Below are positions 3,341 through 50,900 of a stretch of DNA of 64,000 bases, in pieces. Within the stretch, counting starts at the first letter, position 1, and each line of letters starts with the position of its first letter. The DNA is from Bispira polyomma (taxonomy: Eukaryota). The notes beneath the pieces are model-generated. The model was given only the letters and a program-made list of their open reading frames with translations, was not told the DNA's origin and did no database searches. The position numbers were made by a program, and so were the translations under genes. The DNA lies in assembly GCA_965649765.1 (NCBI GenBank), contig OZ287748.1, positions 67,456,001 to 67,520,000 of the forward strand. The letters run 5' to 3'.

Positions 3341-3504
3341 TGGCTTGATCTCTGCAGTATGTGCCCTTGTTCTTAGTATAAAGGGAGGCTACATAGCAAA
3401 CAAGATATCCCTGGATTAATTGGGAGGTTACATGTAAAGCAGGGTGGCCCTGAATTGGTTATAGATACATTGAACAAAGGATGGAGCTATCCAAGAATAT
3501 TGGC

Positions 3505-3572
3505 TATAAAAACCAACTGAATTGTTTGGAAGGCAGTCAGTTACTACTGAGGAAAAGACACAAAGTTAACAG
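3505..3572 (+). promoter_or_regulatory. Candidate TATA box, initiator and short non-coding first exon of the orphan gene
   Basis: TATAAAA at 3505, gcagtcagtt Inr-like sequence about 30-34 nt downstream, cag|gtagtt donor at 3572. Confidence 0.45.
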
Positions 3573-4149
3573 GTAGTTAATTGTAAGTAGAGTTTTAATA
3601 TTCATAAAGTATGTGTATCTATGGTAATGACTATTAATTCATCGCAACTAAGTGTACTGGTGAATATGTAAGTAAAATTAATATTGATGAAATATGTATA
3701 TATATCTTTAGAATTATTCATTTATCACAACCAAGTGTACAGGTAACTATATGTAAGTAGAATTATTATTTATAATATATGTAACGGTATGTTCAAAATT
3801 ATTCATTGATTTAATCAATGTTTTATTAACTTAAGTTATTTAATATAAGGAAAAATTTAATCAAAGTTGGGAAGATATTGTGGAAGATTGTTTTGTAAGT
3901 CCATGAATTATGTAAAGTCAGGTGAAAAGAACTTTTAAGGTGACATTTATAAAAACGTACAGCTGTTTAGTTGATCTTATAAGATCTTTCACTAGAATAT
4001 ATTTGTATGTTTACATCTATTTGTGGTCTATTTTGATAAAAATTTAATTACCTCTGTTGTGTATTTTAGAATAATATTGTTCATAAAATAATAATATACT
4101 AAATATTCTTTAATTTTAATACACTCAGGTAAGTTCAACTTTAAATTTA

Positions 4150-4297
4150 TGACCCCGGCAAGAAGATCAAATAAAAAACTGCTAAAAAGTATCAAATATA
4201 GTTGTTATGTGTTTTTCAAAGATGAATAACTTATTGCTCCGAGTTTAATTATCAAAATATTGTTAAATTAAACATATGATCTTCTTGTCATGGGTCA
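4150..4297. mobile_element. PIF/Harbinger-type MITE
   Basis: About 22-bp TIRs tgaccccggcaagaagatca / tgatcttcttgtcatgggtca, flanked by TTA on both sides. Confidence 0.7.
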
Positions 4298-4432
4298 TTA
4301 CCTGCTGTTTTGTTGCTTATCGTGGTCAACATTTAAAAGCAAGCCAGATATCAAAATTGCATTACTGTTAAAATTATTACAATTAATGTCCCTGTTAAAT
4401 TTAGTAACACACTGAAGAATATCCAAAGAAAA

Positions 4433-6105
4433 ATGGCGCCTCCACAACATCATGGGTTACATCATCAGCACGAGGACAGTATGGATCCAGGGAAACAGAG
4501 AATTCTGGAACACATCGACAAGGTGCATGAAGACATCAGGGAGTACTTGATGAAAGTTGCACAGGGACATGGCGAGGAGACGGCTTGGATGAGTGCATCA
4601 AGGTAAGGCTGTGGTGTGAAACAAAAATCATCGGATGAGTTTCTCTTACAACTGATGTAAGAACTAATGTATCAATAACCAATAATGCATCACCATTTAA
4701 CCAATAACTTATTAAAGTTTTAATCAATAATGTATCAGTTTTGAAAAATACAGATTAGATTAAATTATTCATGCATTATTCATAACAACCCACACATAAG
4801 CATGACAACGTCAGAGAACAGTTCACATTATTGTAAGCTGTGTTATACCATTTAATTTATATAGGTCTATGTATTCTAACTAATAAATTCATATATTTAT
4901 TGCAGATTCTTCTATGGAGATTACAACCATGTTTCTGAAGCTAAAGTCCTCACCATCTCCTGTGTGATTCTCCTGATTCTGTTGGCTGTATCTCTGGCAA
5001 CAGTGGTTATTGTAAGTGTACATTATGGTCTGGGGACGTTATGATGTCAGGTTTTTTATTTTGTCTTTTTGCTGGTAATAAAAGATGATCTAGAAAACTA
5101 TGTACATTTGGAAGGAAAGTTAGAATTGTGGTGTGTTCTTTTATTTCACATAGTACTTTTAGCGACCACAAATAGAACATGATTTATTTTGGCTAAATTT
5201 TCTTGAAAAAACAAAGACATATCAGGACATATTTTGATTTATATTAATGTAAAATTTAAAACCTTTCGTAAATACCGGCAACGAGTCTTTTGTATCATTA
5301 TGTTTTATATAAATCTAAAAAAGTACAACCTCATGATTAAGTGTTAAAAATATGACTACTACTTAAAATATATGTTAAGATAGATTATGTTGATAAGATG
5401 GTTATATTATCTATTATGACGATAGTAATCTGTACTATAGGTGTGCATTGTGAAGCGCAGAGGAGGCCATTGTAAAGGTTGCTGCAATGCTTATGATAGA
5501 CAGACAGATGAAAAAGTCCAGCCTGTGGGTATTTACCCTAACGAGGTAATGTGATACAATGCATGGCCTAATAAAATGTGATTAAAATCATGTCTACTAT
5601 ATTTTAACTTCTGAATGATAAACTTCACTTTTTTGTTTGTAATTTAAGCCATATCCTTTAAGAAAGCGATGACAAATTTCCAGAATAGAATAGATTAGGT
5701 AAATAAAAACAAAATTGATACATGTAGTTTGAAATCAAGATTTTATGAAATTTAATTGCTAATGACTAATTATTGGAGAGTAACTGAAACAAGCCTATAC
5801 CGAGGACCATATATGACCAACTTATATTTTCACACTTATGGAATCTTTTGCTTCTTAAGTCAGACATATTTAATCAAAAGACTTGTCACTAATTAAGTTA
5901 CTATTGTACCTGAAGTGTGCTGTTGTTTTATTTACAAAAGCATCCAAAAACAAAGGAAGCACTTGAATCAACCGGAACAGGAAGTAACATCACAGGAAGT
6001 GACACTACAGAGGAAGTCACGCAGTTTGGTGATTTAAGCCTTACCCCTAAAACTCCTCCACCTCTTTACAATGAGAATGTGTCTGTCACCAAATCAGATA
6101 TATAA
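4433..6105 (+). CDS. Uncharacterised 181-aa single-pass membrane protein; exons 4433-4602, 4906-5011, 5441-5545, 5941-6105
   Basis: Four GC-elevated exons with matching phases (2,0,0): AG|gtaagg, ttctaac..tgcag|, |gtaagt, tatag|, GAG|gtaatg, caaaag|. 546 bp without stops. TM segment VLTISCVILLILLAVSLATVVIVCIV followed by KRR. Confidence 0.82.
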
Positions 6106-9101
6106 AAACTACATGACATGATTTATAAATATAATGATGAACATAAGTTATGGACATACCTGCTTTGTAAAAGTTTTCTGACAATATTGGGTGCTTGTTG
6201 TTGGGTTATAAACATAATGTCTTTGACTTCTAAGTCAAGCTGAATCCTTCAATGTCTACTAACGTTTAAGCTTGATTATTTTTTTTATTTTTTTTTTTAC
6301 TTAATTTGGTTTGGAAAACAGGTGAAATAGTTATTGAAAGTTTATTTCTGTATTGAAAGTATAGTCTTCTATATTCAACTTGCCGTGACGTGTAGTTGTG
6401 TCCAGGGTTATTCAGTTTTCTGTGCTGGGAGATAGGTAGGCATATTTCTTGCGATTTTGCCTTTTATTTATTTACAATATCATTACATACAGTGATTACA
6501 TAATACTATTTTGTAAACTGTTTTAATGCAGTTATAGTTTTATTTTTGATAGCTACTTGTGATGTTTACATACCAGTAGTTATTCTGAAGACAATAAATT
6601 ATGTGCTCGTATTTAAATAACATTGCTAGCTTAAAAGATAATGAATTACACTTAAACAAAACCACAAATGCACCAAAGGTCACATTTTAAATATATTATG
6701 TAAAAATATTCTAGATGTTATACTTAACTAATGTTGTAAATGATGGGAAAATTTGTTTAAACATATTATGATAATCAAAATTCAAATTTGATATTATAAT
6801 GATGTTTATGAACCAGTTCAGAGAGTGCTTAACATAAATAAATGGTGTATATTGTGTTGTAAAAATTCTTTTATATATACAACGTATTTTGTTTAATCCT
6901 ATAGCAATTGTGTAAAGAATATTTTAACAAATCATGTCTGTAGACCCATAAGACATCCACAACATATAGTATACAAATAGAGACGTTATAACCGTATACA
7001 ACAGCTATGCTGCTATATATTATAAAAGCATGAGATATGCGAATGTTATATAACTATGTACGACAGCTGTGGGTATTTATTATAACAGCCTGAGTTATAG
7101 GGGGGAGGGGGGGAGGGGCATCGTGCTAAAATAGTGTGATTGTATATACAAATGAATGGAAAAGTGTACTGAAAAATGCTTGTCACTATGACATCAAATG
7201 GTGCATATTTCTAATATGTAAATATATAGTTTAGTTTTACCAAGTAAAATAATTGAACCAATAGCATCTTTTCAGGTTTGAAGTTTTTACCAAGTCTCTT
7301 TTTGGTTTAGTAACAAACTCTCAGATTATGGACATGTGTAATTTATCATAGAGTACTCTTACAAGTAAAATAATAATGTTTTCCACAGGATAAGGATGGA
7401 CAACGTGTTTAATTTATCATACAGTATTCTTATAAGTAACATGATCTTTCTATATATAATAAGTAGATTGATTCCATAACTGTTTAGTATTCACAAAGAT
7501 TGTTATTCTTAAATTTTGTGTTAATCAATATGATTAGTTTTTTACTGAATGTGATCTGCTGAGATCCCCTAAAGATACCTAAGAATTGTACTCTAAGAAT
7601 GTTTGTCAATACATGGATACCCTTGATCTTTGTATGCTTATTCACATAACTAAAACTGTTAAAGTTTTCATTATTGAATGGGAGACTAAAACGGTAGCCA
7701 AGTCTACTATCCAACATGTGTTAGCTAGTTACCATTTTATACAGTACATAAGGAAAATTGTATCAAACTGGAAAGTGATAAGAAGCTAGGGTGATTCACA
7801 AAGTAACAAACATAAAAAATTATAGCTATGCTTGTCCATTTTATTCATTATTTGACTTTTGTAATTCTATTTGTTCTTGTTAAATACTTGTTCATAACTG
7901 GACATACAGATAAATAGATTATGACCATAGGTTTGTACCAGTATAACTCAAACAATTTCAATTGAGGCAAAATATATATTTATCATTCTAAGGTAAGGGG
8001 AAGGGATCAAAACTCTGTGTTAGGTTTACAAATTAGGAGGTTGTGTTTGTTAATGCATTGTAATGTAAGCAGCACACATATACTAATGCACAAAATAAAA
8101 ACATGCTACTTTGATGTTAGAAAACATCTTAGAAAATCTGTGGATGTATCACATCACTACTTTTGTTTTACATGTGCTGTTTTGCAATTTTTCAAATATT
8201 TAACGATAACATTGCTTTTGTATTGTATATATGATTACTTGAACCACAAATAAAATATTAGAGTCATGGTGGTGTACTAACTAAATACATGTGTATATAC
8301 ACTTTCCCTTTATGTATGCTCACAATAAGTTTCTGCCCTCACTTTTCTTTTACAAAGAAGAGTTAATTATATAATTGGATTGTCCATATCCTATTCTCAC
8401 TCATTTGTCAATCAGAAGTTTAAAGAAAGGTAATAGCATTCCAGAAACATCTGTTTCTTCTTTCTGTTTTGCAACATGCAGAAAAAAACATGCTTCAACC
8501 TAATTTCGGCCTACACGTCATTGTAACTGGTTGTTATGGGACATTTAAGAAAACCCAGTTTTTTATGTGGCAAAATCCTTTTACCCAGATTGCATACCCC
8601 CTAAAACACCACACCATACATACTGAGCTGTAATAAATTGTAGCCCTGTAAAAGCCACATCTTTCTTCTGGTAGGTTAATGCCAGAGCTTGCGTTTTGTA
8701 CTTAATCGCTCCAGTTGCCAAGAAGTGATGTAATTTGCTGCCAAAAGAGGTGCAACATAAAATAAATATTCCCCAAGAACCATTTTTTTATCTGTTATGT
8801 TTCTCTGTTTATCTGCCTTACATTACATCACTTGGCAATATGATTTGGTTGTGACACAAGAAAGGCATATAATATTAATACAAGCAAATTCGTGAGATAT
8901 GTTTAGGATTAATTTATATATATTATTCACAGTTATTCATATTCTTTTAGCATTCAGATTCAAATCCGTACTCAGTGTATCACCCTTTTCTCGCCTGGGA
9001 TTTAGAGTGCTAGGTAACATTTTTTTTGCTGTATGCAGTTAAATTTCCTGACTACTAAAGGCTACTTAATCTATGAACTAGCAAAGTATGAGACAAATCC
9101 A

Positions 9102-20014: not shown

Positions 20015-23000
20015 TGGTTTAACGTGTACCAAGATAAGTAGCTTTTTAGATTTACCTTCTTCCAAAACTCTTCTTACAAATTATCATTACACCAACTTTT
20101 TTTAGACTTTGTTCGATTTTTACTGTATTATTTTAGCAGATTTCACCGAATTTTGTTAACCTTTTGTCATTATCGCTCAGCTACCTTGTTCCGCGCATCC
20201 CTTTTTTTGCGAATTTCGCGTCAACTTTTTTGCTGTGCAACTTTGTCCCACATATTTGTGGTTCTTTAAAATTTTTATTATTAGAATTATAAATCTGTAC
20301 ATTCTGTGATTGTTTTGAGAAAACTTTTGTAGAAGTATTGTTTTGTGCTGCTGCCCTGCATGGTTCTGGCATGTGTCAAACTACATGAGTAGAGCTCCTG
20401 CTCACCTACAACCTCACATTTTCCCGACCAATTTGAACTGGGCGATGCGGCTATTGATTTGATCATAGCCCAGGACCTGGATATTGCTGCCACCTCCGAG
20501 ACGTGGCTTAACAGTGGGGATACCACATTTCTCTTGACAGACATAACTCCTCCGAGTTACAAATTTTTTCAGTTTCCTAGGCTTCAAAAATGTAAAGAAG
20601 GAGTAGGCATCTTTATAAAAAAATATTCCTGTGAAATTCTCAAAAACCAGTCCTATTTCTCTATCACATGCAAAATTTCAAATGGCTATCAGTCATTCCT
20701 GGTTTCCTGTTTTTACTGTCCACCCATCCCTTCTCTAGCTACCTTTACTCTGACGGGATTTTGGATCATCTAGCAACCTTTGTCTATTTAAATTTCCCCG
20801 TACCTGCATCACAAAAACCTGGAGTGATTAAATACAGTAATATAAGAAAAATTAATATTGACAAATTCAGAGACGACATTCTGGTATTAAATCTCTTTAA
20901 AGATCTATGCAAAAACACCGATAGCCTCAGCTTACAATACAATCAAAGCCTTTCTACTATCATTGATAAACACGCTTCCTCGGTATCTAAAACCCTTCCC
21001 CCTATTAAATTTTTCTCTTCGGGATGGTTTTTCCCACCTGTTTCAAGACTGCAAATGTAACTTCTTTGATAAAAAAACAAGGGCTTGATAAGGACCAGCT
21101 TAAAAACTACAGACCGGTATCAAACCTCAGCTTTGTCTCTAAGGTTATCGAGAAAGCTGTCGCACAACAAATCTGTGACCACCTCAACAGACATAACATC
21201 GAAAATCGTCACCAATCTGCTTACAGAAAGTTTCACTCTACAGAGTGCCCTACAGAGTGCCCTTTGAGCAATGATATCAATCTTGCACTGGACCGCAACA
21301 AAATAGTGGCCCTCACCCTTTTAGATCTTTCAGCAGCATTCGACACTATTGATTATGGCCTGCTCTGCGACACTCTCAAGCAATGGTCTGGAATAAATGG
21401 CATTGTCCTTAAATGGATCAGATCCTGCCTTACTTTTAGAGCACAAAGAATTAAATTAGATGATTACCTATCATCTTCCATAAACCTTCCATACGGAGTA
21501 CCCCAGGGATCTGTCCTTGGGCTTCTACTTTTACCCTTTGTAGACATCCTCTCAGCATGGTCACCAATAGTCATATTTTAAAACACACATGTATGCCGGT
21601 GACATGCAAGTCTATCTCTCTTTCAAACCTCAAAATGCAAATAGAAACATTGATCTACTCGTTGACTGTTTAACCGCTGTCCAGGCATGGATGAACTTAG
21701 CCAAATTAAAATAAACCCAGACAAAACTAAATTCAATCTCATTAGAAACAAGAAAAACAGTGAATTTTTAAAATTTTTGTTTCCTATTTCCCTTCTGGGA
21801 AAAGACATACTACCTTCCAAAAATGCCAAAAATCTCAGTGTCATTTTTGATTCGGCCTTTTCGTTTGACACTCATAACTCCCACAACTACTGCTCTTATG
21901 AGCCCCACTACAAGTCTCACATACATGTTTAAAAAAGTGTTACTCGTTTTGTGGCTACTCTGATATTTGCAGGATCTGTCCTGATAGAATTTACAGTTGG
22001 CTGTACCTGCCTTTGTGAATGTACTACTTTTACCGGCTCCCCGTGTGGCTGAGTTGTTAAAACTACTGCCAGAGACATGTCTCTGAGCATGGGCCCGCCT
22101 AAGACGATCGAGCTTGTCGACATTGCTCCATTTCAGTTTGTCCATTTCCATGGTCATAAGTGCAACTGCATGACAGGCCTCAGCGGCCTCCCAAGAAAAA
22201 TCCTGAGAGTCCTCTGTGAGTCCTGCCATATAGTTGAGCATAATCTCTTTCGTTTCGGGGGATTTTTCATCCTGAATTATGGGCGTAAATCCACAAACCC
22301 ACTGCCCCATGGTCAAGTCATCGTAACACGGCCTGGCCTTAAAATTTCCCGAAAGCATTTGATTTTTAGGCCACTCAACAACACATTTTATCAGTACATC
22401 ACTTCTCCCATCCATCTGAGATTTAAGCTTACCTTTAACAGGGTTCTCATTAAGGTGTTTCAGCTCGGCTAATCGTGCCTCAACCTGACTTTGAATACAA
22501 GAATTTTGTTTCAAAAACTGGACATTTGGTATAACAGTTTCATTACTATTTACATTGCTTTCTTGAATTTTGACCAGAACCCCTATCAGCAACAGTCTGT
22601 TTGTTGGTAGCATTGGCTGACAGAGCTGTTTCTGTGACCGACACTTGCTTGTCGAGTCGCTCCATCATTTTACCCATTGACTAAAGCTGAGACTATATTG
22701 CCCCGACACCACGGCTACACTGTCAACGTCAACCGAACTATCGTCAACTGTTTCCCCAGCGGATAACACCTCTTCTGTGACCGAATCTTCAGATAGTATA
22801 ACCTGGCATCTACTGCCAACAGGACGAGTGTGCTTAGTACAACACCTGCTACAGCCATAGACTTTAACTTTAGGGATTGCTACGACCGTAAATTCAAAAA
22901 CCGCGAAAACTATGGTAATAATTTAACAATAATTTTAATAAAGTACCACCAACTAGCCTTGGGTCTCATAATTTCGCGAATTTTAACCACCTCTTTATGG

Positions 23001-24010
23001 GCTCATATGTGACATTTACAAACACCGCCCTTGGCAAAAATTCGGGCTGTATTTTAATGCAGAGATGTTAAAATACAACCCTGTAATGTAAATGACCCAA
23101 AACACATTTGTTTTATCAAGAAAAACGTCCAATATAGAATCAACAATCAACATACTACTGTTACAATAAAAAATAATATATAAACATGAACGAGATAACC
23201 AATAATAAAACAGTGTACTAAAATTTGTAAAAGAATGTAAACAATCCTTTATGATTTTGCCGCCCTTTTCTGGTAACCTCTGTCCTTGTTTGTTTTATAT
23301 TGTCAGTCCAGCAGCCGAATTTGAAAAGGTAAAATACTGGAAATACTGAGGCTTTTATAGTACTAGGCAATGAACCGTGACTGAGTTTAGACTGGTCCCC
23401 TAAAACTGATCATAGCATCACTAGGTTGGTGCCCCACGATATGTCGCTCCTGCTATTACCACATATGCGACATCAAAAGAATCGAAATCACCTGTCAATG
23501 GACACTGCGATAACTGTGGCTAACGCCCTTGTGAGCAGCCGCCTGCAACTCTCTTCTGTACGGAGTAAACAAGCCACAGATTAAAAAGCTCCAATCCATT
23601 CAAAACTACTTATACAGGGTGATTTTTAGTCTGGGTGTTTGCACAGATGTCACTCCTTACCTCAAAAAATTACAGTGGCTGCCCATTCACTCTCGAAATT
23701 TGTTCAAAATTCACGTTACCACTTTCAAGGCTGTAGTCACTCAACAGCCCTCCCACCTTGCTTCCCCTCTCTCTTTCAGTAACCATACGAGAGGCAACAG
23801 ACTCTCTGTTTCTTCTGTCAGATCAATCAGTAAGGTGGAATCCAGAGCTTTCTCTAATGCAGCTCCCTTGTTATGGAACAGTCTCCCAGTTGACCTCAGA
23901 TCAGTAGATACACTCACTGGTTTTAGGAAAAAGCTTAAACCCTATCTTTTTAACCTTGCCTACACACCCTAGCTTCCCTCGTGCACGCCCCCACATCTTT
24001 CCTTACAGCC
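20015..24010 (+). mobile_element. Decayed L2/CR1-group LINE, sister of the 32.6-36.5 kb copy, with internal deletions and a nested insert
   Basis: APE (IAATSETWL), RT ([31 protein letters not shown]) and C-terminal (LLWNSLP..LR..F.KKLK) fragments are colinear with the intact copy. Confidence 0.92.
21874..23439 (-). mobile_element. Truncated retrotransposon: terminal repeat/promoter plus gag-like ORF, probably DIRS order (tyrosine-recombinase type)
   Basis: Interrupts the LINE RT. ORF 21810..22613 has WP...SG..K.RP.YD.L...QWV.GF..EDSQDFSW and a C..YQ..C....H knuckle. TATAAAA on the minus strand at 23353-23359. Family recognised from memory only. Confidence 0.6.
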
Positions 24011-30700: not shown

Positions 30701-33700
30701 GCTTTTCATATTAACAATAATTTAGTGCCTGGGCGGTAATAAGGCATTTTTAATCACAGAGACCATGGCATTTCACGATAGTCAACAAGAAACAGTGAGG
30801 ATCTGGAGAACCATAGGGTTTGGCCAGTCCTCGTATTATTCTCTAAACAAACTCAGGCCTCAATCACTGAGGCTCAACTCAAGTAAATGCTATGTGTGTA
30901 ACCCCTGTATACAGCTGTAAAATACACTTGTCACCATTCATTTTAATACAGCTTTCAACAGTGAATTCAAATATGAAGTCATGTTTGATGTACCTTCCCT
31001 CTCGTCAGAGATAGAGAGACATTTAGGATTTGAACTTGAGTCTGAGTTGAGCATTGGATATTTGCAGAATACGGCTCCAGGTTCACTAGACAGCGCCACA
31101 AGCCCTTTTTCCTAAATCTGGTATTATCGCCCATGGGAGCATAGAGTTTTTTATTTCATTCAACCCTGTTGGAAGTAAGTGGGCCATAGTTACATTAATC
31201 TGTAAAAAGAGGGGCTGAGACTAAAATTGACAAAAATATTATATTCTATAGCTTTTGTTGTAAACAATGGTCTTATACTACATGATTGTCTTTAAATGTA
31301 AACATCCTCTCCACTATAGTCAGACTCATTCCACAACAGGTCTTGACCTATCTCCTTGAGCTATCTTAAAAAGATCAACAGTCTCTGGACAAGGCCATCA
31401 GAGATTTGGTAAACTAGCACCCCATTAGGGGATAAGGAGGAGGTCTCCTTTTTATTACAGGTTTTGTCTTCCTCAATGAGATTCATAGATAAAGGTCAAG
31501 AGCTGACTAAGTCAGTTAACACCTCCATTCAAAGGGCCTTTCAACAACATCTCTGTTGGTGTGATTTTCTGTTGTTACTGTTTTTATCAGGCACAGAGTG
31601 GCATTGTTTTTATTCTAAACCGCCGTCTTAGAACATGCATAAGGCCTTCATGGATTGGTTGGAGGCAATCAACTCGGCAAAATTGAGAGGTGTCCGATTT
31701 ATTGTTATCTGTCACGGCCGGCCTGAGTATATAATGGTCATATCAACGTATTTCACACTGTTTGCTATGTCTTTTTAAAAGACAACTCTTGTTTAGCCAA
31801 TGAGCCGAGGAAAAAAAAACAAAAAAACAACAGGAAAAAACGAACAAGACAAAGAGCAATATTAATGCAATTAATCTTCTTTTTATTATGAGTATATTGT
31901 ACTTTTACTTATTTCCAATAATTTCTTTGCACTTTAAATACTGGAGATGCAACTTTATGGTACATAAAGCATGGCTACAATTGGTAGGCAAGTGAATAAA
32001 TTTAGTGGCAACTTGGAAGTTTATTTTATAATGCAGGCACAGTAGCTATGTTTGTACCACACTTTTTTGTCTGTCATGTATAAATATGGTCATCTGAAAC
32101 ATATCCTCAAGTCTCTACATTGGCTTCCAATTCAACAACTTATCGAATATAAGAAATTGCTACTATGTTTCAAGGCCATGCATAGTCTTGCATCTGACCA
32201 CATCACCAGTTTTTTAATCTCATATTTCCCTGATTGTTCCTTGTGCTTAGATTCACATAAACTGCTGTTAGTCCAAAAAACTAAATGTAAACCTCTTGGA
32301 TATCGTGCATTTTGCTTAGCAGTACCACGATTGCGGAACAGTGTGCCAACCTAGTTGAGACATTCTAACATGGCTTAAGAACCAAATACAAACCCTACTT
32401 ATTTAAATCAGTGTACATCTGCTAATATGTCTTAATCCTACCTTCTTATACTTTTTTCAAATTGTAAAACGCTTAGTAATAGGTGCTATTTAAATATGTG
32501 TTATGTCATGTAAGATACACCCAGTATTACCACCCATACCTTATTATAACAGGACCAACTTGTGTCCTCGACTCTGACTGGTTCAACTAATATGGACAAT
32601 CCATGACGGTTTTTTTCTTCCATAATGTTTTTATACCAAACTGGTTAAATAAAGAGCGTTTAGCGTGCACCAGTTAAGTACCATTTTAAAATTTCCGTTT
32701 CGCGATTTGTAAAATTCTTACTGGTACTTCGAGTTATGGCGAAAAACATTACATATTTTCATTAGTTACAGTTCTTTTTATCATATTTACTTTGTCTGTC
32801 TTATAGGGCTTTTCTTGCCATTTATCACCTAGCTGTTTAACCTTCTGTTATTATCGCCCACATTTCCCGTTTTACGCATTCGTTTTTCTTCTGCTATTTT
32901 CGCATTTCCTTTTCTTCTATGTGACTTAGTTCACATATTTTTATACTACAAGTGTTTTTACATAGAATAGACTACATCTTTTATTTTATTCTGTCTAGCT
33001 GTGTTTTATATTTGGTTCTTTTTCTTGCTACTGCTCCTTCACCTCTGAGATGTGGAAGTTCTGTTTAACACTTCTCCCGTGTATGATTCTGGCCGGTGTC
33101 AGATTACATAAATGGAGCGCCTGCTCTCCATCCAATACACCTTTTTTCGACCAATTTGCACTTGGTCCATCTCTACTAGCCTCTCTGGATAAGGTGAACA
33201 CTTCTTTTTTAGCCTTTCAAATTCACATTACCCGCCGTCCAAACCCCAGGGTTAACAGTATTTGGATCCCTCTGTTGACTGCGCTCTGCGAGGACGTCAG
33301 CATTAATCCGGGCCCCCCAGCATCCTTGCTTAAGATCGGTGCATTTAATGCCCGTTCCCTGCGGAATAAGGTACCTGCGGCTATCGACTTAGTCATAGCC
33401 CAGGACCTGGATGTTGCTGCCGTCTCCGAGACGTGGCTCAGCAGTAGGGATACGACATCCTTTTTATCGGATATTACTCCTCCGGGCTACAAATTTCATC
33501 AGTTCCCCATGTTGCACAAACGCGGGGGAGGAGTTGGCATTTTTGTGAAAAATACCCTTTCCTGTGAAATTCTAAAAAACCAGTCCTACTCGTCTTTCGA
33601 ACACATTTCATGCAAAATTTCAAACGGTTATCATTCATTCCTAGTTTCCTCCTTTTACAGACCACCCATCCCTTCTTTAACTAGTTTTACTCAAGAGTTT

Positions 33701-36700
33701 TCTGAATTCCTTGAGACCCTTAACCTTCTCCCATTTGAAGCTATCATCCTTGGTGATTTCAACATCAAGCTCGACATAGAAAATACTACGACAAAAGATT
33801 TCAACACCCTCCTCGACACTTTTGGGTTCTCACAGTTTATCTCTACTTCAACCCACATCCACAATCACATACTCGATCTGGTAATCGCAAGACCAAATTC
33901 AAATCTCATCAGAGAATCATGGGTAACTGATGGGATTTCAGATCACCTAGCAACCTTCGCCTATTTAAATTTACCAATACCTGCCTCACATAAACCTCGT
34001 GTCATAAAGTATAGAAACATCAGAAAAATTAATATAAACAAATTCAGAGACGATATCCTGGAAACTAATCTCATCAAACATCCATGCAAAAATGCTGAAA
34101 GCCTTAGCTTACAATACAATCACTGCCATTCTACTGTCCTTGATAAACATGCGCCATGGGTATCAAAAACCCTTCCCCCAACTAACAACCATGAATGGAC
34201 CAATGCCGCCATTACAGAAGCCAAAAGACGCAAACGCCAACTTGAGCGTCAATGGCGACGCACAAAATCCTTCTTAGACAGAAGCCGTTACCGTATTGCC
34301 TCAAATAATTACAACAGGCTAATAACTGATGCCAAAAAGCAACACTACGACTCCATCATCATCGAAAATCAGGATAATCCCAAAAGGTTATGGGCCTCCA
34401 TAAACAAAATTCTACATCGAACATCAGAGAAGGTTCTCCCCATAAACCACTGTCTTACTTTTTTAGCAGAAAAATTTGGAAATGCACAAAATCCTCCTTA
34501 GACAGAAGCCGTTACCGTATCGCCTCAAATAATTACAACAGGCTAATAACTGATGCCAAAAAGCAACACTACGACTCCATCATCATCGAAAATCAGGATA
34601 ATCCCAAAAGGTTATGGGCCTCCATAAACAAAATTCTACATCGAACATCAGAGAAGGTTCTCCCCATAAACCACTGTCTTACTTTTTTAGCAGAAAAATT
34701 TGGAAAATTTTTTATAGAAAAAATCAGCAACATTCGTGACGCCTTCCCAACGATACATCACTTCAATCCTCCAGCCCCAGGATATAAGGTTTGTAACCTG
34801 TTTCATTTTAGTACACTGTCAGAGCTTGAAGTTCTGAAACTCATCAAATTCTCTACTATTAAATCTTGTGACTTAGATCCCATCCCAGCAGTTATTCTGA
34901 GTCAATGTCTTGACATTCTTGTCACACCCATAACAAATATATTAAATTTTTCTCTTCGGGATGGTGTCTTTCCCACCTGTTTCAAGACGGCAAATGTAAC
35001 TCCCTTGATTAAAAAACAAAGGCTTGATAAAAACCATCTCAAAAACTACAGACCGGTGTCACACCTTAGCTTCGTCTCAAAAGTCATCGAGAAAGCTGTG
35101 GCTAAACAAATTTCTGACCACCTTAATAGACAAAACATTGAAAATCGCCACCAGTCTGCTTATAGAAAATTTCACTCTACAGAAAGTGCCCTTTTTTCCA
35201 TCAGCAATGATGTCAATCTTGCACTGGGCCGCAACGACACAGTGGCCCTCACCCTTCTGGATCTCTCAGCTGCATTCGACACTATTGATCATGTCCTGCT
35301 CTGCGACACTCTCAAGCAGTGGTTCGGTATAAATGGCAGTGTCCTTAAATGGATCAGATCCTACCTTACTCTTAGGGCACAAAGAATTAAACTAGATAAT
35401 CACCTATCATCTTCCATAAAACTTCCATATGGAGTACCCCAGGGATCCGTCCTTGGTCCTCTACTTTTCACCCTTTATACACATCCTCTCAGCACTGTCA
35501 TCAATAAACACAATATAAAACACCACATGTATGCAGGCGACACTCAAGTCTATTTCTCCCTCAATCCACAAAACGCAGATACTAACATAGACCTACTTGC
35601 AGACTGTCTGTCTGATGTCCAGGCGTGGATGAACTACTCCAAACTAAAGCTTAACCCTGACAAAACAGAATTCATCCTCATAGGAAACAAGAAAAACAGT
35701 GAACTCCTAAAATCTTTGTTTCCCATCTCCCTGCTGGGAAAAGACATACTACCTTCCGAAAATGCTAAAAACCTGGGTGTCACTTTTGATTCAGCTTTTT
35801 CGTTCGATACTTATGTTGCCAACATCTGTCGCTCCTGCTATTACCACATACGCGACATCAAAAGAATCAGAAACCACTTGTCCATGGACACAGCGATAAT
35901 TGTGGCAAATGCCCTTGTAAGTAGCCGCCTCGACTATTGCAATTCTCTCTTGTACGAAGCAAATAAGTCAAACATTAAAAAGCTCCAGTCCATCCAAAAC
36001 TACCTATGTAGGGTCATTTTTCGCCTGGGTTGTCGCACAGACGTTACTCCTTACCTAAAAAAATTACACTGGTTGCCCATTAAATCTCGAATTTTGTTTA
36101 AAATTCACGTTACCACTTTTAAGGCTGTAATCACTCAACAGCCACCCTACTTTGCCTCCCTTCTTTCCTTTAGTAACTGGAAGAGAGGTAACAGACTCTC
36201 TGTTACTTCGGTCAGACCAATCAGAAAGGCGGGTTTCAGAGCGTTCTCCACCGCAGCTCCACGGTTATGGAACAGTCTCCCAGTTGACCTCAGATCAGTT
36301 GACACACTTATCGGTTTTAGGAAAAAGCTTAAAACCTATCTTTTTAATCTTGCCTACCCACCTTAGCTTTCCTCGTGCACGCTCCCACTTCCTTCCTTAC
36401 AACTCTGCAATTTCCATGGACTTAATGATTGGACTAATGATTCTGCTGTTGCGCTTTAGAAGATGCCTAGCATCAATAAAGCGCGTTAAAAATCTATAAT
36501 AATAATAATAATAGTTTGTTCATAAATATGATTTAATTTAAAATACAGCAGAAATTTTGTAATTATTTTAACATGTCATGTTAGAATCAGAATTTTCCAC
36601 AGAAAACCATGAATTATACTAGAAAGTTTTATGACTTTTGTACAATTAACTGTACATATCCGGTGGTTTGAAATGGCGGTCCTATCCCGAGTGACACGCT

Positions 36701-47900: not shown

Positions 47901-50900
47901 GGTTCAAATTCAGCGTTGTAGGTTTTTCGCAATCCTGCCAACAAACAAACCAATAAAGATAGAGGCGCAAAAACATAACATCTCTGTGGAGCCAACAATG
48001 TGAGGAATACCAGTAGTGACAGTCGTGTGACTGACAGAGGGTTATTTATTCATGTTAAGCAGAAATTTTGGGAAATGTTGGGAGACATTTTATTTTACAG
48101 AGGACAGTCAATACAATTTAATATCCATAGGTGTAGATGGTTTGTCTCTGTCATTGCTGTCTAAGGAGTAATCTGATTTGTATCTAGACATATGTAGATG
48201 ACCTAGCTGACAAATGGCATAAGCGAGTGTGCTTCCACCCTATATAATAGGGTGTTCTGTTATGGAACCTACTCTTGGGGGGTACATAGTATATTGTGTG
48301 AAGATATATCTCATATTCTTTACCAATTGCTTTCCAGTGAAATTATTATTCGCTGAACAGTGTCTAAGATGGTTTAATTACTTCATTTATTGTGTTTTCG
48401 CCCCGGTCATTTTGGTTTGCTGATTCGTTTTGTTTGTTAATAGGATTACAGAAACTCTAAAAGAGTAATCTGTTTGAAAGTCTCTCATTGGATTTGGATA
48501 AAAAAAGAATAAAAAGCAGATTTGGTTTGATTAAAAAATTTTTGGCAGGTTATGGGATGTCCCAATAAAAGCTGAATTCTGGTCATAACAAAACTACGTC
48601 AATATACAAAAGGCACCATTTTTTGGCAGTTTACGGTATGTAGCAATAAAAACCTGATTTCTGGTCATAACAAAATGTGCATGCGTAGATACACATGGCG
48701 GCAATTTTAGGCAGTTTACAGTATGTCCCAATAAAACCCGATTTCTGGTCATAACAAAACGTGCATGCCAATATACACATGGCGCCAATTTTGGGCAGTT
48801 TACGGTATGTCCCAAAAAAACCCTGATTTCTGATCATAAAAAAACGTGCATGCGTAGATACACATTGCGCCAATTTTGGGCAGTTTACAGTATGTCCCAA
48901 TAAAGCCTGATTTCTGGTCTAACAAAACGTGCATGCTTATATACATATGGTGCCAATTTTAGGCAGTTTACAGTATGTCCCAATAAAACCTGATTTCTGA
49001 TCATAACAAAACGTGCATGACAAGATACACATGGCGCCAATTTTGGGCAGTTTACAGTATGTCCCAATAAAACCCGATTTCTGGTCATAACAAAACGTGC
49101 ATGCCAAGATACACATGGCGACAATTTTAGGCAGTTTACAGTATGTCCTAAATAAAAACTGATTTCTGGTCATAACAAAATGTGCATGCCAATCTACACA
49201 TGGCGCCAATTTTGGGCACTTTACGGTATGTCCCAATAAAACCTGATTCCTGGTCATAACAAACTTCGGTAATCTAGTCAAATTGACGTAACACACATGG
49301 GGAAGTAAGCGGGAGTATAGTGTGTGACAGCAATGTGTAATAATTTTGGATTATTACCATGAAGAAATCACCAAAAAGGGGAAGGGATCAAATGAAACAA
49401 TTCTTGGTGCTCCCATTTCCAGTGCTGCTGCATTCTAAGGATTGTTTCATCAATGTTTGTAACATTTAATCCCTCATAAAGCTCATATTTTCCGGACGTT
49501 TATGGGCTGTTGGGAAATTGGAGATTTCCTCTAGAACACTCTAGCTGGCAAGGCGATGCTGGGTAAAGCTCAAAGTAAATACCAAGGGAAAGGTGCCTTT
49601 AAAAGAGGCAGTTGTGAGCAAGGAAACGGAGGCAGGGAGGGGGCGGCGTTTTTATCAGCCATATCCTGATATTGTTTTAACCCTAAAAAGTGTGCGGCCA
49701 TGTTGGAAATAATATGTAAGGCCTTCATGGAATGGTTGGAAGCAATCAACCCTGGCCAAACTGAGGGGTGTCAGTCACACTGTGCGCCGATTAAAATAAA
49801 AAGAGAACTGTTGTTGAGTGTGGCAATTCCCCACGGTTATTACCTCAGCCAGAGAGGTTATGTTTTTGCTCTTTGTCAGTTGGTTTGTTCGATAAAAGGC
49901 TTATATAATAAATATATAATTATAAACATATAATATAATAACACCCCACACTGATTTTAACCAAACTTTACAAAGGGCAAAGGCCAAGGAGAAACATCCA
50001 TTAAGTTGTAAGCTAAAGTAAGTACTAAGTACTTACTGTATACTTTAATAAGTATTTACCTAATATCTAAAAAACAATACGATTTTGTCTGTACCATATG
50101 GCGGAGATTTGCACTCTCATGAGCGTTTGTGTGAGATAGGAACGGTGTTATGAGTGTATAATACTTTTTTCGTACATTATAAAGAAGACAAAGTTTTTTT
50201 TTATTTAACATCCACTCTAGTAAATTTTAGTAGGTTATATTGGGATGGGTAGTTGGAAATGCTGGAGGAAACACTGCATACAGTCGGTCAAGGCTCTGCA
50301 CTGAAACCAGCGGCCCACAGTAAGGAACTACCACCTTTCCCACATAGGCATCAACGGGATTCGAACTCACGTCACCCAGAGGCGAGAGACCAGTGATTGT
50401 GAAGCGCAATGCTTGCTAACCACTAGGCCACCGCGGTCCCAATTTTTGGAGTGATAATGTATTTGGGTGTATGTTTTCTATTGAAAGATAAACAACAGGG
50501 GATACATCCTCTGTCTCTCTACACACATATATCCCATAGAATACATTTGTTAATCCATATCACAATAGCTGGGAAACCTGTACAGATAAAATTTTCACCT
50601 AAAATGACAAATGTCACAAAGACATCTGTTAAATAAAATTACAATTTGCATACAGATAAATTATCACCTAAAATGGTATATCTTACAGAAGACATTTGTT
50701 AATTGATATCACAATGACTGACAACTTGTTAAAGATAAATTATCATCTAAAACAATGGTAATTAACGTATGTGTATGTCATAGAGTAACACCCCAAAAGT
50801 TGAAAATATGAGGGGTGGAACAGTAGTAAACAAAATTAGCAGGTTTGTAAGTGATGGATCAACATCATTCAGAGACAATAGGTGATAAACTCAACCCTTT

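Follow-up and report, generated by a model that had tools for sequence, protein, structure and literature searches.

We find that a gene of 181 codons at positions 4433 to 6105 (+) of the window, that is, the whole stretch of 64,000 nucleotides of Bispira polyomma DNA that was analyzed, belongs to an unnamed small family of predicted membrane proteins that is of a known design but has an unusual ectodomain, the new part being the histidine-rich region on the outer side of the membrane. The family has at least four members, referred to here as genes A (the gene in the window), B, C, and D, all on one chromosome. We propose that its members are inserted N-out/C-in and act as PY-motif adaptors for a Nedd4-type ubiquitin ligase, their His-rich outer part perhaps binding metal ions or protons, a role to which we give an even chance of being correct.

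Gene A and its paralogs

The gene structure proposed in the initial annotation was confirmed at the sequence level. The four exons (4433-4602, 4906-5011, 5441-5545, and 5941-6105, all on the plus strand) are separated by introns of 303, 429, and 395 nt that all follow the GT-AG rule, and joining them gives 546 nt, that is, the 181 codons claimed plus a stop. The GC content of the exons is 0.50, 0.42, 0.47, and 0.41, and that of the introns is 0.28, 0.27, and 0.28. The donors (AAG/GTAAGG, ATT/GTAAGT, and GAG/GTAATG) share 8, 7, and 6 of 9 letters with the consensus in a window where only 171 of 3666 GT sites score 7 or more, and the start codon is preceded by A at -3 and followed by G at +4. 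Exon 1, which probably starts at 4405, encodes residues 1 to 57 with the His-rich tip and an amphipathic helix and ends in a phase-2 donor. Exon 2 (residues 57 to 92) holds a G-D-x-x-H-x-x-E-A-K juxtamembrane motif and most of the transmembrane (TM) helix and, as in paralog B, is 106 nt long and runs from phase 2 to phase 0. The end of the TM helix, Cys94, a KRR stop-transfer sequence, and Cys103, Cys106, and Cys107 follow in exon 3 (residues 93 to 127), and exon 4 (residues 128 to 181 and the stop) opens with HPKxKEA, again as in paralog B. Gene A is almost certainly a real gene.

The donor at 4129 (CAG/GTAAGT) is a perfect match to all 9 consensus letters, which only 2 of the 3666 GTs in the window reach, and together with an acceptor at 4404 it suggests a further, noncoding 5' exon for gene A. 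This probable exon is predicted at 4070-4128 (+), where its start is uncertain, with an acceptor-like AG at 4068-4069 and an in-frame stop just 5' of the donor. In each of the four family genes, an acceptor-like AG precedes the ATG by 4 to 28 nt, in differing phases. The first AATAAA past the stop of gene A, at 6593-6598 (+), is a candidate polyadenylation signal, and the next lies at 6837. Contigs of two samples are identical over the 4 kb from 3500 to 7500 of the window and may come from one individual or represent collapsed alleles. The contigs of three runs of a single study, which are of DNA type and may be the source of the assembly, span the stretch and show neither differences nor splice joints, which says nothing for or against expression.

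Gene A had been described as an orphan, a description that no longer holds, since it has three paralogs and one homologue in another genome. Paralog B (181 amino acids; G000:C1:67448956-67453449, +), which came to light in the 40 kb read ahead of the window, has its stop 7 kb upstream of the ATG of gene A on the same strand, shares its intron phases (2, 0, and 0) as well as the 106-nt exon 2, and lines up with it at both borders of intron 3. The two proteins are 28% identical over 173 columns (blastp E of 2.5e-15, unfiltered), and their alignment score of 141 compares with shuffle maxima of 68 (2000 global shuffles) and 103 (2000 local shuffles in 12-residue blocks). A genome search with the last exon of B led, through a weak second match (E of 0.175), to paralog C (201 amino acids; C1:33798830-33796225, -), and paralog D (207 amino acids; C1:33781381-33777940, -) lies in tandem with it about 15 kb beyond. 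Both have the same layout and intron phases 2, 0, and 0; they are 49% identical to each other and 26 to 27% identical to B. Gene A is the most divergent member, with unfiltered E values of 1.5e-5 against C and 0.018 against D, and with low-complexity filters the values become 7e-4 for A-B, 0.09 for A-C, and 0.47 for A-D. A profile of B, C, and D gives gene A 20.4 bits, a score that 29 of 3000 locally shuffled decoys equal. Since the match of gene A to C, D, and the profile is weak, its membership rests on its similarity to B, the common exon phases, and the motifs at equal exon positions.

The paralogs evolve under purifying selection, as the substitution counts show. Between C and D, from the TM helix to the end, dN is 0.22, dS is 0.61, and pN/pS is 0.46 (bootstrap range, 0.31 to 0.69); between A and B, pN/pS is 0.67 (0.53 to 0.80), with dS saturated. 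That the frames are still open at such divergence marks them as coding.

A scan of 344 kb on both strands for a TM exon, a basic exon, and a last exon with PPxY returned exactly the four family genes and found nothing in four reversed or complemented sets or in 443 shuffles; its criteria were fixed after the genes were known, so it shows the rarity of the arrangement and is not an independent discovery. Exon profiles found no fifth member across the 344 kb around both gene pairs, and the other single-exon searches of the genome gave just the known members or weak unrelated matches. The DNA pattern for [S/T]PPPxYxE matched 72 times, against 64 in the control, and no member turned up among the 51 profile-scanned of the 68 matches besides the family genes. 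The two best of these matches, L061 (C6:24.02 Mb) and L067 (C7:26.44 Mb), were rejected as members and belong to a separate family: they are related to each other, their hydrophobic exons are accompanied by one rich in Gln, Pro, and Val and by a terminal exon that ends in PPPGYEEN, and we take them to be MS4A-like. Two more genes with a TM segment and PPxY, L055 and L056 on C4, have a different exon layout.

Predicted membrane topology, cytosolic tail, and neighboring genes

Each of the four proteins (181 to 207 amino acids) has one TM helix, with a best 21-residue hydropathy mean of 3.0 to 3.4; that of gene A spans approximately residues 71 to 96 (Kyte-Doolittle mean of 3.3). A CTR1-type copper transporter is ruled out by the single TM helix. 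The claimed lack of a signal peptide extends to the whole family, in which the best 8-residue hydropathy at the N terminus is at most 0.36 and no hydrophobic leader is present. An upstream exon encoding a signal peptide was considered and judged unlikely: the in-frame hydrophobic candidates are few and unshared between the genes, and the acceptor phases differ. The net charge is -1 before and +3 after the TM helix in gene A and -1 to -3 before and +5 to +8 after it in paralogs B, C, and D. The positive-inside rule is well established, and from this charge distribution and the absence of a signal peptide we infer type III (N-out/C-in) insertion, in agreement with the topology first suggested. 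The juxtamembrane cysteines noted earlier for gene A also recur, as one of the three residues that open exon 3 is a Cys in all four genes, and in B, C, and D this exon begins with V-x(0-1)-C and a stretch of basic residues. Palmitoylation of cysteines so placed is established knowledge. Between C and D, conservation takes in the TM helix and the juxtamembrane part.

The PPxY motif reported for gene A turned out to be the best-kept feature of the family. In gene A, the [S/T]PPPxYxE motif is encoded at 6052-6075 (+), with PPLY at residues 167 to 170, and all four genes have their PY core (PPLY, PPAY, PPVY, and PPAY) on the positive, predicted inner side of the membrane. PPPxYxE is invariant and accounts for 5 of the 8 invariant columns in the four-gene alignment of exon 4, while the rest of the tails is 25 to 67% identical to the first row of the alignment. 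The tails are 77 to 105 residues long, contain 7 to 13 Lys, and carry the motif 7 to 16 residues before their end; when they are shuffled, a PPxY falls within the last 20 residues in 0.3 to 1.5% of cases. Group I WW domains generally bind PPxY, and WBP1-type proteins are likewise single-pass proteins with PY motifs in the tail. Judged by this motif, the tail quite probably binds a WW domain. The other interaction motif proposed, a class I PDZ-like C terminus, is present in gene A, which ends in KSDI (S-D-I at 6094-6102, +), but is not a family feature, as the paralogs end in VEMK, PKAE, and AKAD. A shuffled tail of gene A yields a PDZ-type end 3% of the time, so gene A is at best a candidate PDZ ligand.

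A link with the convergent chloride channel gene had also been raised, but 21 kb separate gene A from the last exon of that gene, and the 74 of 110 frames scanned near C and D gave no match to such a channel family. The channel gene (27117-61519 of the window, -; PF02932 and PF02931) is a Cys-loop channel gene of the GABA/glycine type, has its best PDB matches among glycine and GABA-A receptors, and encodes Pro-Ala-Arg (PAR) at the start of M2, which we take to be an anion-selective signature. A near full-length LINE (32999-36366, +) sits inside one of its introns, and pieces of retroelements lie between the stop of gene A and the last exon of the channel gene. Broken LINE pieces (+) at 20393-23972 are interrupted by an opposite-strand frame at 21810-22664 that resembles a YR-retrotransposon gag, and 48594-49350 is an array of tandem repeats in which both strands have open frames. 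A minus-strand frame at 2537-2773 was rejected as a head-to-head partner gene, because it reads, by its motif, as the 3' fragment of a LINE. Upstream of A and B, on the same strand, lies a KIBRA/WWC gene (L097:5347-5568, +; PF25802, E of 3.9e-13) with probable later exons in L010 and L009. This WW-domain gene probably stands beside PPxY genes by chance, and neither it nor the channel gene is tied to the family.

The histidine-rich ectodomain and the search for relatives

The His-rich character first seen in gene A is kept in all four genes and in exon 1 of the homologue from another genome. The N-terminal parts of the four proteins comprise 75 to 83 residues with 6 to 16 His and 12 to 34 Asp/Glu, that is, 7 to 20% His and 16 to 43% Asp/Glu. 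The homologue, P0001, was the only match of a phmmer search with exon 1 of gene A against 1.84 billion representatives (94 amino acids, 61% identity, E of 1.7e-11), and it comes from a 1.48-Mb contig and forms a single-member cluster. The similarity runs from the Met of gene A to the residue cut by intron 1, which fits a gene call in P0001 that overruns into the same intron. Seven of the 8 His of gene A exon 1 are kept in P0001, versus 27 of the 48 other residues, but these are too few positions, in one pair only, to prove selection on His.

In gene A, the ectodomain is predicted to form a helix at residues 19 to 46 (4487-4570, +) with a heptad face of K21, L25, I28, H32, I35, L39, V42, and H46, and AlphaFold2 gives a helix at residues 19 to 45 with a pLDDT of 96 over residues 21 to 40. 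The a and d positions, in a register picked by eye, are identical in P0001 at 8 of 8 sites, two of them His, versus 7 of 18 others, and the hydrophobic moments of the gene A and P0001 helices were equaled by 28 and 4 of 5000 shuffles, respectively. The ectodomains of B, C, and D are low-complexity sequences without this helix: exon 1 of B is a 27-nt tandem repeat of 4.4 copies that encodes a His/Gly/Ser/Glu tract, and those of C and D consist of His/Asp tracts. Predictions of a complex of four exon-1 helices with Zn stayed, at 0.07 and 0.02, below the mark of 0.32, which is neither support nor counterevidence.

No Pfam family scored above the cutoff on any of the 16 family exons, scanned singly, or on P0001. 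Word-based protein searches with exon 1, with an exon-1 alignment (95 candidates), and with an exon-4 alignment (5205 candidates) gave no full-length relatives, which is a weak test with such short and divergent queries, and two metagenome scans gave 66 and 36 pattern matches, of which none was confirmed. A PDB sequence search with exon 4 of gene A returned KASH5 alone (E of 1.3), and a Foldseek search with the exon-1 helix gave no matches. Among the papers listed in our literature survey, judged in part by title and the opening of the abstract, none gave an account of such a His-rich PPxY membrane protein in annelids or mollusks; subscription journals and the supplements of genome papers lay outside the survey and may contain gene models.

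Proposed role and alternative explanations

Several known groups of PY-motif membrane proteins invite comparison, as the family fits in layout the loose class of small adaptors that includes Comm, PRRG, Rcr1, and PYT-1. Comm, PRRG1, and PRRG3 have no signal sequence, Cys residues stand at the cytoplasmic end of the TM helix in Comm and PRRG3/4, and acidic and hydrophobic residues follow the PY core (PMC5578492); the PY motifs of Comm drive Nedd4-dependent ubiquitination and lysosomal decay of Robo1 (PMC12101832); and Rcr1/2 are placed in the same class of small PY adaptors (PMC7401822). The report on PYT-1 states that lineage-restricted adaptors have little sequence in common beyond PY motifs and that PYT-1 functions independently of the two WW ligases tested (10.1101/2025.08.13.670147). 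Like the present proteins, Commissureless is short, has a single TM helix, lacks a signal sequence, carries Cys at the cytoplasmic end of the helix, has acidic and hydrophobic residues after the PY motif, and belongs to a small paralog group that is poorly conserved outside the motifs. It has an LPSY (GLPSYDEAL) and a PPCY motif, whereas our family has one PPPxYxE near the C terminus, with the Glu at +2 in common, and an ectodomain rich in His and Asp. Exon-by-exon scans gave no match to the Comm family of Pfam.

PRRG1-4 are also short single-pass PY proteins, PRRG1 and PRRG3 without a signal sequence (PMC5578492). Their ectodomain, which is small, acidic, and binds ions, offers a parallel in function to that of our family, which in contrast has neither a Gla domain nor LPxY and has His/Asp tracts in place of gamma-carboxyglutamate. 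No Gla domain match was found on exons 1 and 2 of any of the four genes, and ExxxExC, which we take to be the Gla pattern, is absent from the family. PYT-1 of Caenorhabditis elegans and Rcr1/Rcr2 of yeast are likewise lineage-restricted small membrane PY adaptors that clear chosen surface proteins, but they have two or three PY motifs, and no His-rich ectodomain is described for them in the text consulted. Shisa/CYYR1 proteins are single-pass proteins with PY motifs in the tail that have a Cys-rich extracellular domain (C*C*CC*CC; PMC5578492), whereas the Cys cluster of our family is cytosolic, with no Cys before residue 76 in gene A and at most 2 in the ectodomains of the paralogs. By those features that can be tested on the predicted proteins, the family is not a member of the Comm, PRRG, or Shisa groups.

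The open frame, the exon structure and motifs common to four genes, and the purifying selection lay the basis for the adaptor role that we propose. From established motif knowledge, the juxtamembrane Cys would be palmitoylated and the PPxY would dock on WW domains. If the proteins work as Comm, PRRG4, Rcr1, and PYT-1 do, the ligase would then ubiquitinate both the lysine-rich tail of the adaptor and a membrane client bound via the adaptor's TM helix and juxtamembrane part, and both proteins would be carried to late endosomes and lysosomes; whether gene A acts in this way, as a ligase adaptor for other proteins, is evenly poised. It is speculative that clustering or the capture of clients is tuned by Zn, Cu, or other metals bound to His and Asp or by protonation in acidic compartments, and we consider it doubtful that the His-rich part gates the adaptor by metal or pH. 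In the modeled helix of gene A, His32 and His46 lie on the core face and could bundle around Zn or Cu; the ectodomain might sense the extracellular or endosomal ion and cause Nedd4 to clear a metal transporter or receptor, making sensor and adaptor one 181-residue chain, which is just as doubtful.

Known adaptors usually have at least two PY motifs and the family proteins have one, so they may be mere ligase substrates or partners of other WW proteins. The single motif would suit a metal-scavenging cargo receptor. In the extracellular space or a granule lumen, its His/Asp ectodomain would trap metal ions or particles loaded with metal, and its PPxY would serve only for its own ubiquitination and internalization, with the metal delivered to lysosome-type granules. 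What B, C, and D preserve in their ectodomains is a His/Asp/Glu composition and not a sequence, and the tandem repeat of B suits a bulk chelator rather than a client-binding fold, but the gene A ectodomain is an ordered predicted helix with position-specific conservation, and C and D have a conserved TM and juxtamembrane part, as would suit partner binding. We regard such a receptor as rather unlikely.

More unlikely still is an anchor for nonligase WW proteins (KIBRA/WWC, Yorkie/YAP, or MAGI) that acts in signaling or polarity and not in degradation, with the PDZ end of gene A adding a scaffold contact. The general affinity of PPxY for group I WW domains, the WWC1/KIBRA gene upstream of A and B, and the S-x-I end of gene A would all agree with such an anchor; however, neighborhood alone makes no functional link, the 74 of 110 frames scanned near C and D contain no WWC match, and only one of the four genes has the PDZ end.

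His-rich matrices hardened by metals are known in annelids and mollusks, and the genome has annelid-type erythrocruorin linker domains, above the cutoff at three places. These domains mark the host as probably an annelid, and a search for the mollusk hemocyanin domain, which was not of a kind to prove absence, gave no match. A membrane protein with a structural role in secretory granules or in the hardened matrix of a cuticle, chaeta, or jaw, in which His/Asp tracts cross-link via metals and PPxY only controls turnover, is nevertheless very unlikely, as the known matrix proteins of that kind are secreted, whereas this family lacks a signal peptide and has a cytosolic motif as its most conserved part. 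That gene A is a silent or decaying duplicate, or that its exon chain is mis-assembled, is scarcely credible, for although the pyrimidine tract of the acceptor at 5940 is weak and an alternative donor within exon 3 fits too, the four-exon frame is intact despite saturated synonymous divergence from B, exon 1 has a 61% identical counterpart in another genome, and intron 3 matches that of paralog B at both borders.

Which receptors and transporters remain at the cell surface is determined by small PY adaptors, which are difficult to find, as they have little in common but the motif; among the papers listed in our survey, none described one from annelids. A defined family of four genes with a conserved gene structure makes the proposed adaptor role amenable to peptide and cell culture tests. 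If the ectodomain gates nothing, the family would be an ordinary lineage-restricted member of a known design. If the His-rich ectodomain does gate the adaptor, extracellular metal or acidity would be coupled directly to the destruction of membrane proteins.
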